DNA from: Candidatus Versatilivorator sp.
GTDB taxonomy: Bacteria; Acidobacteriota; Terriglobia; Versatilivoradales; Versatilivoraceae
Length of the DNA stretch: 64,000 nucleotides
Reading direction: 5' to 3'
Assembly: GCA_965207735.1 (NCBI GenBank)
Contig: OZ242296.1
Coordinates: 384,001 to 448,000 of the forward strand
Position 1 is the first letter of the stretch; every line of letters begins with the position of its first letter. The notes beneath the pieces are model-generated. The model did no database searches, was not told where the DNA came from, and worked only from the letters and a program-made list of their open reading frames with translations. A program made the position numbers and the translations under genes. Positions 24,675-27,471 of this stretch are shown here, piece after piece.

Positions 24675-25327
24675 TTGTTTCACCCTCGAATGATCCGCCC
24701 GTCGTGGGGGGCGGGGGCGGGACTTGTCTGAAACAACCGAAAAACGACAAGAGACAAACGAAAAAGACTTATCCACGAAGGGGCGCGAAGAACGACGAAG
24801 GGGCACGAAGGCGCTGAGGTTAACCGCGACGGGATACAAGTTCGCGAAAGGATTGTCGATTTCTGATTGTTTCACTCTCGAATGATCCGCCCGGCAGGGC
24901 GGGGGCGGGACTTGCCTGAAACAACCGACAAAAGACAAAAGAAAAAAGAAATCCACGACGGGGCACGAAGAACGACGAAGGGCCACTAAGGCGTTGAGGT
25001 TAACCGCGACGGGGTACCAAGTTCGCGAAAGGATTGTCGATTTCTGATTGTTTCACTCTCGAATGATCCGCCCGGCACGGCGGGGGCCCGGCTTGTCTGA
25101 AACAACCGAAAAAAGACAAAAGAAAAAAACTTATCCACGAAGGGGCACGAAGAACGACGAAGGGCCACTAAGGCGCTGAGGTAAAACGCGACGGGATACC
25201 AAGTTCGCGAAAGGATTGTCGATTTCTGATTGTTTCACTCTCGAATGATCCGCACGGCAGGGCGGGGGCCCGGCTTGTCTGAAACAACCGACAAAAGACA
25301 AAGAAAAGACTTATCCACGAAGGGGCA
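24675..25327 (+). repeat. Tandem array of about 181-bp units (units 1-3 and first part of unit 4)
   Basis: TTGTTTCAC recurs at 24675, 24867, 25048, 25230 (periods 192, 181, 182) with near-identical intervening sequence. Confidence 0.95.
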
Positions 25328-27322
25328 GTGCGCCGTGGAAAGGCGCCTTCTTCTGGCGGGTGCGAACCCCGCCCAACAACTGTCGCTCCGGTTGGTAGCA
25401 GCCAGGGCGGATCATGGAGGTAACGAAATGGTCTGAAGCACTCTGGGGTCAAGGGCCGCCAAGGGCGGCTCAGCGAGCATGCGGGCCGGAACGCGAGTGA
25501 ACGTCGAGCAGGCCTCGAAACGGACAATACGGAAGCCGACCCTCCTGTCTTTAGGGGAAGGCCGTTGGCGGATGGGGAAGAGAGCGACGCGGGCACCGAT
25601 CCGCTTCCGTCGGGGTAGTGACGCTGGCACGCATGGAAGGGGAAGAAGGCAGCAACACGGGAAGCCCTGGGGGAGATGCGGCACACATCAACCGGGACCC
25701 CGCGAGGGGCAGGCCGGGCCGTCAGGGTGGCGGATGGGTCGGTAGTACCGGAGAAGCCGGGTAACGCCGGTGGAGGGAAGGGACCCTGAGTTGAGAGCAG
25801 CATGGAAAGGAGGCAAGGCGTGGCCACTGACAAGAGTCTAACAGGGTCAGAGGGGGTTCGGAAATTCCAGACCATGCTACATGCGAAAGCGAAGGAGGAC
25901 CCCAAGCGGCGGTTTCATGCGCTGTCGGACAAGGTGTGGCGAGAGGACTTTCTGAAGGAAGCCTGGGCACAGGTACGCCGAAACGGCGGGTCGGCCGGGG
26001 TGGACGGGGAGGGCTTCAAGGACATCGAGGCGTATGGGGTGGAGGGCTGGCTGGGGGAACTGGCGCGGGACCTGAGGGAAGGAACCTACGTACCGAAGCC
26101 GGTGCGGCAGGTGCTGATCCCGAAGAAACAGCCCGGCAAGTTCCGGCCTTTGGGCATACCCTGCATACGGGACCGGGTAGCGCAGACGGCGGCTTTGCTG
26201 GTGTTGGAGCCGATCTTCGAAGCGGACCTGCAACCGGAGCAATATGGCTATCGGCGGGGGCGGAGTGCCAACGACGCGGTCAAACGCGTGCATGAACTCC
26301 TGCAAAGGGGTTACCAGGAGGTGGTTGACGGCGACCTGTCCAACTACTTCGGCGAGATTCCGCATGCGGAGCTGATTCGAAGCATTGCCCGGCGCGTGAG
26401 TGACGGGAGGATGCTCAAGCTCATCAAGGCATGGCTGGAGATGCCGGTGGAGGAGGACGACGGGAAGGGTGGCAGACGCCGCCGGAACCGAGGGCGCCGG
26501 GAGCGGAAGGGGACACCGCAAGGAGCCCCGATCTCACCGTTGCTCAGCAATCTCTACATGCGGCGCTTCGTTTTGGGCTGGAAGGTGCTGGGATATGCCC
26601 GGCGCTTCTGTGCGGAGATCGTCAACTATGCGGATGACTTCCGTGTACTCGGCAGGGCACCGGCGGCAGAGATGCTGACGGCGGTCAAGCGGATCATGGA
26701 GGAGCTGAAGCTACCGGTCAACGAGCGGAAGACCCGATGCTTGCGGTGTCCGGAGGAACCGATGGGGTTTCTGGGATATCGCATCGGACGCAACTATCGC
26801 CCCAAAGGGAAAGGAGCCTACATCGGCACACGACCCAGCCAGGCGAGCGTCCAGAGCATCTGCCGCAAGATCAGCGAGTGGACGGCGCCGAGGAACGGGA
26901 CGCTGCTTCGAGGACAGATGGTAGAACACCTGAACCGGGCGATGACCGGGTGGGCGAACTACTTCGTTCTGGGGCAGGTGAGCCCGGCCTACCGAGCGAT
27001 CGACCGCCACGCGGGCGGGCGGCTGCGTCAGTGGCTCTGTCGGAAGCACAAGGTGAGGACCGGGGGGAGTGTGCGCTTCTCGGACGAGAGACTATGGAAA
27101 ACCTATGGACTCACTTGCCTGGGGTCGAAGCCACAGAGCCTTCCGAGGGCGAAGGCATGATCTTGACTGAAAGCCGGATGCGGGAAAACCGCACGTCCGG
27201 TTTGACGAGCGGGGGCGAGGAAACGCAGCGAGGAACGAGATTGAGGCACCGGCGAGTGGCGAAAGCCGCCGGCAACAGCGACTCCCTCGATCTAAGGCCG
27301 GCGCGCCTCCCCTCGACTCTAC
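25328..27322 (+). mobile_element. Group II intron (1995 bp), apparently intact
   Basis: 5' GTGCG at 25328; 3' ...GACTCTAC at 27322; domain V with AGC triad (AAAGCCGGATGCGGGAAAACCGCACGTCCGGTTT, about 27170-27203); removing it restores the repeat AGGGGCA|CGAAGAAC. Confidence 0.95.
25802..27160 (+). CDS. ltrA: Group II intron reverse transcriptase/maturase without endonuclease domain
   Basis: AGVDG, RPLGIP..RDRVAQ, GTPQGAPISPLLSN, YADD, FLGY, GWANYF (maturase X domain); 452 aa, no HNH domain. Confidence 0.95.
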   Translation: MERRQGVATDKSLTGSEGVRKFQTMLHAKAKEDPKRRFHALSDKVWREDFLKEAWAQVRRNGGSAGVDGEGFKDIEAYGVEGWLGELARDLREGTYVPKPVRQVLIPKKQPGKFRPLGIPCIRDRVAQTAALLVLEPIFEADLQPEQYGYRRGRSANDAVKRVHELLQRGYQEVVDGDLSNYFGEIPHAELIRSIARRVSDGRMLKLIKAWLEMPVEEDDGKGGRRRRNRGRRERKGTPQGAPISPLLSNLYMRRFVLGWKVLGYARRFCAEIVNYADDFRVLGRAPAAEMLTAVKRIMEELKLPVNERKTRCLRCPEEPMGFLGYRIGRNYRPKGKGAYIGTRPSQASVQSICRKISEWTAPRNGTLLRGQMVEHLNRAMTGWANYFVLGQVSPAYRAIDRHAGGRLRQWLCRKHKVRTGGSVRFSDERLWKTYGLTCLGSKPQSLPRAKA

Positions 27323-27471
27323 CGAAGAACGACGAAGGGACACTAAGGCGCTGAGGTTAACCGCGACGGGATACCAAGTTCGCGAAAGAATTGTCGATTT
27401 CCGATTGTTTCACCCTCGGATGATCTGCCCGACAGGGCAGGGGCTCGGCTTGCCTGAAACAAACCTGTTTC
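27323..27471 (+). repeat. Remainder of array unit 4 and start of unit 5
   Basis: Repeat resumes right after the intron; TTGTTTCAC at 27405 (period 180 after subtracting the intron); ends ...TGAAACAAACCTGTTTC. Confidence 0.93.

Follow-up and report, generated by a model that had tools for sequence, protein, structure and literature searches.

A stack of probable IS110 mini-elements in a Candidatus Versatilivorator genome and a possible folded donor for its predicted bridge RNA

The window, i.e., the whole 64,000-nucleotide stretch of DNA that was analysed, sits in the single-contig 5.26-Mb genome of Candidatus Versatilivorator sp. (G000). It holds an IS110 element, a tandem array of four mini-elements (M1 to M4), a group II intron that splits the last of them, and the stack's older tail. 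Positions are counted from the first nucleotide of the window.

23038..24722, minus strand: IS110 element of 1685 bp, starting with the CT core at 23038-23039 and ending just before the one at 24723-24724; 10 copies share its ends
23038..23053, plus strand: B box at the right end of the IS110 element, consisting of the CT core, 4 nt and the TGAAACAA inverted-repeat arm; layout like that of the ISPpu9 B box
23061..24467, minus strand: IS110 recombinase, 468 aa; D36, E84, D121 and S356 invariant and D124 nearly invariant in a 10-sequence alignment
24485..24655, minus strand: bridge RNA as predicted from an RNAalifold consensus of 29 homologs, with two internal loops and approximate ends
24526..24532, minus strand: candidate guide G2, AGGCAAG, at the right-donor-guide position; matches the B box
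24563..24570, minus strand: candidate guide G3, ATCATTCA, at the left-donor-guide position; matches a displaced same-strand motif
24587..24595, minus strand: candidate guide G1, AGACAAG plus 2 handshake bases, at the right-target-guide position; matches the target arm in homologs
24675..24724, plus strand: A box of the IS110 element, with the TTGTTTCA arm, then the G3-matching motif (24687-24694), a hairpin (24695-24714), an 8-nt spacer (24715-24722) and the CT core (24723-24724)
24723..24910, plus strand: mini-element M1, 188 bp; 187 of 188 positions identical to a twin at G000:C1:985658
24911..25091, plus strand: mini-element M2, 181 bp; its best other copy is the neighbour M3 (93%)
25092..25273, plus strand: mini-element M3, 182 bp; best other copy at G000:C1:1368268 (96%)
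25274..27448, plus strand: mini-element M4, 180 bp, interrupted by the intron; a near-twin without the intron lies at G000:C1:1368619-1368799, its halves 98% and 99% identical
25328..27322, plus strand: group II intron, 1995 bp, with an RT/maturase ORF at 25802-27160 and EBS1 UGUCUU; 13 copies at least 99.5% identical
27449..27740, plus strand: older tail of this stack, with a B box, a decayed A box and a heptamer-repeat element (27449-27678), followed by a minimal B-A element (27679-27740)

The tandem array was originally predicted from the sequence of the locus, and the TTGTTTCAC block indeed starts at all five positions then reported (24675, 24867, 25048, 25230, and 27405, with spacings of 192, 181, 182, and 2175 nt). 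The unit features listed with it are present as well, namely the TTGTTTCA...TGAAACAA arms, the GC hairpin, the A-rich tract, the CCACGAAG motif, and the CGCGA/TCGCG stem. The register of the units has to be shifted, however: the true unit extends between successive CT cores, and each of M1-M4 has the layout CT, B box, interior, A box, CT. The block at 24675-24722, previously counted as unit 1, appears in the same variant in 10/10 IS110 copies and is therefore the end of the IS110 element, while the supposed partial fifth unit is the end of M4. M1-M4 are 90-94% identical to each other; with such interiors instead of unique spacers, and with no Rfam CRISPR match, a CRISPR array is rejected, as it had been before.

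The IS110 gene described at the left edge of the array is real, its product scoring above the cut-offs for PF01548, PF02371, and NF033542. As for family membership, it combines DEDD RuvC-like and Tnp20 domains with the conserved catalytic D/E/D/D and S356; a PDB sequence search with the recombinase gave no match. PF01548 detects only one family in the genome, with 10 copies. All 10 carry the same A-box variant at one end and CTTGYCTGAAACAACC at the other, share a dinucleotide core between both junctions, and have a specific target: every copy sits at a full B box, a class that makes up just 201 of the 1459 CTTGYCT 7-mers. A 79-80% identical variant in G008 and G013 has G1 AGGTCAG and is located in heptamer repeats in 9/9 copies, and it is from this heptamer-targeting variant that the core was assigned as AG.

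The group II intron reported in unit 4 is equally real (RF02003, RF00029, and TIGR04416), with a GUGCG start, domains V and VI, an RT-maturase, and EBS1-IBS1 pairing. EBS1 changes together with the 5' exon in three sister subfamilies (four subfamilies in all). Among the 13 full copies, 11 follow ATCCACGAAG, which has 303 such sites in the genome; a B box lies within 70 nt of 8 copies, and 2 copies are at unrelated sites. Since the intron reads the interior of the mini-element and not its ends, it is an independent lodger without mechanistic link to IS110, and it would have entered M4 later by EBS1-IBS1 pairing with the interior motif. An earlier suggestion, that the array is a REP/BIME-like landing pad for two unrelated mobile elements, thus survives in part. 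IS110 does sit at the element end (10/10) and the intron in an interior motif (11/13); IS110 is not unrelated to the repeat, however, because both ends are shared, and the REP/BIME comparison fails on the only RAYT-like gene, which is flanked by a different REP.

To collect relatives of the element, 131 loci with a recombinase match were reduced to 49 with a conserved RNA anchor and then to 30 distinct rows, from which L185 was dropped as its anchor is spurious. The consensus fold (RNAalifold, hence a predicted structure) has two internal loops, with G1 and G2 located on their 3' sides; a single-sequence fold of the 5' region of the IS is no better than shuffles (z +1.6). The 5 nt of G1 beside the core match the target arm exactly in 19/25 homologs (0 of 20000 permutations), and the handshake base matches in 22/25. 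G2 matches the element's own B box exactly in 16/18 homologs (again 0 of 20000). As permutation controls, G1 against the B box gives 4081/20000 and G2 against the target arm 251/20000, the latter because several homologs also target B-box-like sites; all these values overstate significance, since the homologs are kin and not independent. Within the genome, G2 tracks the B-box variant in 10/10 IS copies, and G1 is exact to its own target 7-mer in only 5/10, most of the others being off by one A/G. For the left target guide no clear covarying offset was found (best z 3.3 among about 110 offsets, 16 loci). The element thus has, as expected for IS110, a predicted structured RNA upstream of the gene with guides that covary with target and donor. 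On the CT strand G1 and G2 behave like the right guides of IS621, handshake base included (geometry as described in PMC11208158). Both read AG(A/G)CAAG, which makes the element's own end the target, and with a target guide equal to the donor guide each insertion would leave a landing site.

The repeat extends far beyond this locus: nhmmer over the whole genome places 342 end-block and 336 interior matches in 382 clusters. The family is present in 12/13 same-genus genomes and in 0/27 other genomes searched. A B box is found within 170 nt upstream of 184/331 A boxes, compared with 0.85% at random positions, and 68/331 have none within 2.3 kb. There are at least three types of interior: the array type (157 elements), none at all (19 bare B-A elements), and a 330-bp type (about 11). 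The interior motif is also found where boxes are absent (66 clusters), as well as next to a broken GxxExxY gene, which suggests that the interior was captured between IS ends, possibly borrowed from another dispersed repeat near GxxExxY gene relics. Three values do not favour mobilisation by IS110: isolated older copies have an imperfect left CT (C 85%, T 69%, n=49), a full B box follows only 69/133 parsed elements, and an IS110 is within 400 bp of only 12/157.

Comparison with relatives also shows local differences. At one orthologous site the stacks in G000 and G002 differ yet start from the same CT, though their far ends could not be matched, and G005, G008, and G013 hold none. In the orthologous adenosyltransferase-dehydrogenase gap, 2/13 relatives hold such elements and the other 11 have a gap of 15-290 bp. 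No clean empty-site pair was obtained at three loci tested, where the relatives differed by more than the element. As for assembly, contig depth in run X1 is about 83 for the IS and about 100 for the intron vs 7.5-9.5 on unique flanks, in agreement with 10 IS and 13 intron copies, although X1 is possibly the source sample and so not independent. None of the X1 contigs spans the whole stack.

Some copies are twins at 99-100% identity with unrelated flanks. On the left side identity breaks exactly at the CT, as seen in M1 and in four identical minimal elements; on the right side it continues into the target B box, and the first difference is usually 3 nt past the core (25 pairs at ≥97% shown). 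Median identity among the 157 elements is 86%, with a partner at ≥99% for 8 of them, and adjacent tandem units are barely closer to each other (median 88%, 42 pairs) than all pairs (86%). The nearest neighbour is within 1 kb for only 10/157 elements. These values bear on the idea that the stack grew in place from one element, either by half-match reactions at the IS110 boundary or by unequal crossing-over. Tandem non-coding units with one-sided donor matches have been described beside IS110 genes (n=468; 10.64898/2026.08.14.744561), M2 and M3 are each other's close matches (93%), and a few adjacent pairs elsewhere reach 97%. The units here, however, carry both ends and not one, and the twins of M1 (577 kb away) and M4 lie 0.6-1 Mb distant at 98-99%, whereas their own neighbours are only 90-94% identical. 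Growth in place thus appears unlikely for the stack as a whole, although local duplication is possible for M2, whose best match is its neighbour.

The stack is instead very probably a self-stacking family of IS110 mini-elements, likely copied in singly and in trans by the IS110 recombinase with its predicted bridge RNA, as judged from sequence comparison. This corresponds to an option of the original prediction, a stack of non-autonomous IS110-mobilised mini-elements, which gains support from the shared ends, the guide matches, and the twin boundaries. Copying out of an element would give a circle closed at the core, which would then insert at the CT of a pre-existing B box. The incoming element would carry its own B box and so restore the site, and stacks would grow as immigrant copies arrive, IS110 itself presumably being one more of these.

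A different enzyme might have done the spreading: the family would then be a REP/BIME/REPIN-like repeat moved by a RAYT or another protein, which IS110 merely targets and mimics. REP-targeting IS110s are known (PMC12288879), and the copies are mostly intergenic, with 23/157 in long ORFs vs 82% of the genome. The family also persists in the complete genome G009, as many young-looking copies (90-93% identity), although this genome lacks an IS110 recombinase (no PF01548 match). G009 nevertheless retains an A box with a bridge-RNA relic, the only such IS trace found there, which suggests that IS110 was lost from it. Moreover, twin boundaries fall on the IS core, and the A/B end layout is ancestral to the IS clade, being found down to 55% protein identity and in other phyla with different targets. 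The single RAYT-like gene (one Y1 match) has a different REP at its flanks, and with no cognate RAYT flanked by the same repeat a REP/REPIN system with RAYT is rejected; the wider reading, with some other enzyme, is improbable as well.

According to a third option, the units are structured ncRNAs, transcribed as an array, that serve the RT or the recombinase. An sRNA is indeed expressed from MITEPpu9 (PMC8450116), and RNA libraries, which lack a DNA control, contain unit-like contigs. Bridge-RNA-like contigs are found in these libraries too; such contigs give no strand, ends, or level, a tandem-unit junction equals a circle junction in them, and in two RNA runs the flanking genes of the host are without cover. 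Against this option, the interior stem, where covariation had been proposed as a check, shows no compensatory pairs in 74 parsed copies, no Rfam family matches the units, and a consensus scan finds no sigma-70-like promoter. In addition, a query with the 5' non-coding region of the IS matches only the 10 IS copies, so the units hold no copy of the bridge RNA. A structured ncRNA family is rejected on the interior stems, and a role of the units as an ncRNA array for either enzyme is very hard to credit.

While G1 and G2 follow the known geometry, G3, which lies on the 5' side of the donor loop, does not. Against the arm beside the core it scores 1.26/7 on average over 27 homolog rows, compared with 6.33/7 against an A-box motif about 30 nt away on the same strand that G2 reads. 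The 27 rows include L061, for which the A box of a neighbouring element was picked, and L152, whose guide is shifted by an extra base. Positions 2-7 of G3 and motif are identical or wobble-compatible in 25-27 of the 27 rows, vs 21 and 18 for positions 1 and 8. When mapped by eye on a protein tree that covers 26 rows, guide and motif change in concert about six separate times (e.g., L119 vs L120/L123, L074 vs its sister clade, L127, L087/L113, and L155), with a few discordant changes (L137 and L122). Two tandem IS110s on a Caballeronia plasmid, the matched one at 46% identity, have the same layout and, again by eye, a concerted guide-motif change.

The stretch between motif and core consists of a hairpin plus exactly 8 nt. 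With a spacer of 8, 93% of the hairpin arm positions are paired, compared with 47-55% at 6, 7, 9, and 10, and the hairpin covaries between C-G, G-C, and T-A alternatives. When the CT strand is folded, the TTGTTTCA/TGAAACAA inverted repeat becomes the outer stem and the motif comes to lie opposite the 8-nt spacer. In this pseudo-duplex each guide would pair with the 3' portion of the strand that it reads, in the manner of IS621. Across the mini-elements the four bases next to the core are variable, three of them with a top base at 41-50%, while the motif differs at positions 6 and 8 only, a constancy that partly reflects how the parser was built.

Taken together, this covariation suggests a fold-back single-stranded donor. 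The donor would be read as one folded CT strand with the outer stem, an inner hairpin, and a bubble, and G3 would pair with one side of the bubble and G2 with the other. Several observations speak against this. Among 151 parsed elements, 84 carry ATCATAC, which mismatches the current G3 at position 6, and this mismatch is present in both pairs of 100% twins. DNA folds of five junction blocks all keep the outer stem but reach z below -2 in only three, and for homolog junctions the proposed fold is often not the one of minimum energy. No replication-strand bias is detected (108/213 loci). For ISPpu9, mutation of the A-box palindrome was described as not stopping minicircle formation (PMC12288879). 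Alternatively, the G3-motif match could have a role in a second step of binding to duplex DNA, or in an antisense RNA. On balance we lean towards the folded donor: a clade that probably includes ISPpu9, whose published A box shares the 8-nt spacer and the hairpin, may read its donor as a folded single strand, both donor guides pairing with the CT strand across a hairpin offset by 8 nt. Convergence of the target guide on the element's own end would then give self-extending arrays of cassettes that have ends of about 50 bp and exchangeable interiors.

The closest known system is ISPpu9 of Pseudomonas putida KT2440, a member of the IS110 group with an AG core (PMC12288879). Its A box is AG followed by 8 nt, a hairpin, and further on AAACA, and its B box is TGTTT(G/C) followed by 5 nt and AG (PMC12288879); the available part of that paper maps no ISPpu9 guides. 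MITEPpu9 (ssr9 module) is gene-less, has both boxes, is sometimes tandem, and forms transposase-dependent circles (PMC12288879; PMC8450116). The family described here shares with both the A/B-box layout and the two IS ends around a non-coding interior, and with MITEPpu9 also dispersed copies with boundaries at the core. In contrast, MITEPpu9 is reported with 8 copies, compared with about 330 A boxes and no fewer than three interiors in this genome; the targets of ISPpu9 are REPs, whereas this IS110 targets its own B box; and the MITEPpu9 interior is described as an sRNA related to the IS 5' region (Ssr9), while the present interior does not copy the IS 5' RNA. Expanded IS110 loci, as presented in 10.64898/2026.08.14.744561, have mostly one-sided donor matches and their insertion does not regenerate the target, unlike the present units, which have both ends and regenerate a guide-matched arm. 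The stack is a large case of something already described (MITEPpu9 and tandem units next to IS110), self-targeting and far larger.

With IS621 the element has in common the DEDD and serine recombinase, an upstream two-loop RNA, and the CT core on the cleaved strand (PMC11208160, PMC11208158, PMC13626964), as well as 3' guides made of the core plus 5 nt and a handshake base that pairs with the other partner's base 5' of the core. It differs in that its donor is inverted relative to the gene. The left donor guide of IS621 is described as pairing with the opposite strand beside the core, and here such pairing fails on the G3 scores given above; the element is a member of the IS110 family that fails the IS621 left-donor-guide test. 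For IS621 and CazIS110-1, top-strand copy-out, ssDNA circles able to integrate, and half-match reactions have been reported, and DNA structure has been presented as a specificity element, the ISPpu10 hairpin lying in the target (10.64898/2026.08.31.748434; 10.1101/2025.10.25.684509; 10.64898/2026.03.19.712850). As far as these accounts go, none of IS621, CazIS110-1, and ISPpu10 has a guide that reads a displaced same-strand site of a folded donor. A literature search likewise returned no description of this geometry, most subscription papers and preprint supplements being outside its reach. The predicted donor geometry is the unusual part, and a donor folded in this way would differ from the double-stranded donors described so far. 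Integron attC sites offer an analogy only: there too a folded single strand acts as a pseudo-duplex site for recombination and elements stack in arrays, but the enzyme is a tyrosine integrase and no guide RNA takes part.

Whether IS110 intermediates are single- or double-stranded is actively debated, and a same-strand guide displaced by a hairpin is a sharp prediction in this respect. If it is true, minimal donor ends (about 16 + 50 bp) would be defined for a clade of bridge recombinases for which sequence search found no solved structure, and the hundreds of natural copies would amount to a mutational scan of donor ends.

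Relatives of the group II intron that interrupts M4, the fourth mini-element of the stack, are tied to another repeat of the window. Similarity to this intron is confined to its 5' 468 nt (86%) at about 28 loci, which come after ...CCGCATTTCTCA, the end of the MITE repeat at 22043-22296. The EBS1 of these copies, the intron segment that pairs with the 5' exon, is complementary to the same CCGCATTTCTCA end. The features considered here are as follows.

Window 16400-20305: ORF of 1301 aa with matrixin, carboxypeptidase-regulatory and TIG domains
Window 22043-22296: MITE with terminal inverted repeats of 22 nt
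Window 27517-27675: AGTGGAG heptamers repeated in inverted arrays on either side of a short spacer
G000:C1:2227208 (genome holding the window): sole RAYT-like Y1 gene, with its own REP family around it

The inverted heptamer arrays have 7 near-full copies genome-wide. As for the RAYT-like gene, one copy of its REP (window 27833-27862) lies immediately beyond the mini-element stack.

Mini-elements, or candidates for them, also occur in same-genus relatives. In G009, locus L190:1500-1735 combines an A box with a region resembling the bridge RNA, the predicted IS110 guide, and no transposase lies behind it; this is possibly a guide-carrying mini-element akin to MITEPpu9 of Pseudomonas putida. A distinct mini-element in G002 (L206), consisting of an IS110 3' end and an A box, is stacked within the same arrays. 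Separately, a join similar to that of L190 appears as a loose end in X15, a contig from an RNA library.

Among IS110 homologs, a variant with 79-80% identity in G008 and G013 (L025-L033) is retargeted to CAGTGGT-type heptamer repeats in 9/9 copies. The left junction of homologs L152, L155, and L158 resembles, by eye, a tRNA 3' end, and the first bases of each element continue this sequence. Finally, a Caballeronia plasmid (L188) carries two IS110s in tandem, with A and B boxes laid out as in the window's IS110, and its host, a cultured soil bacterium, offers a practical system for tests.
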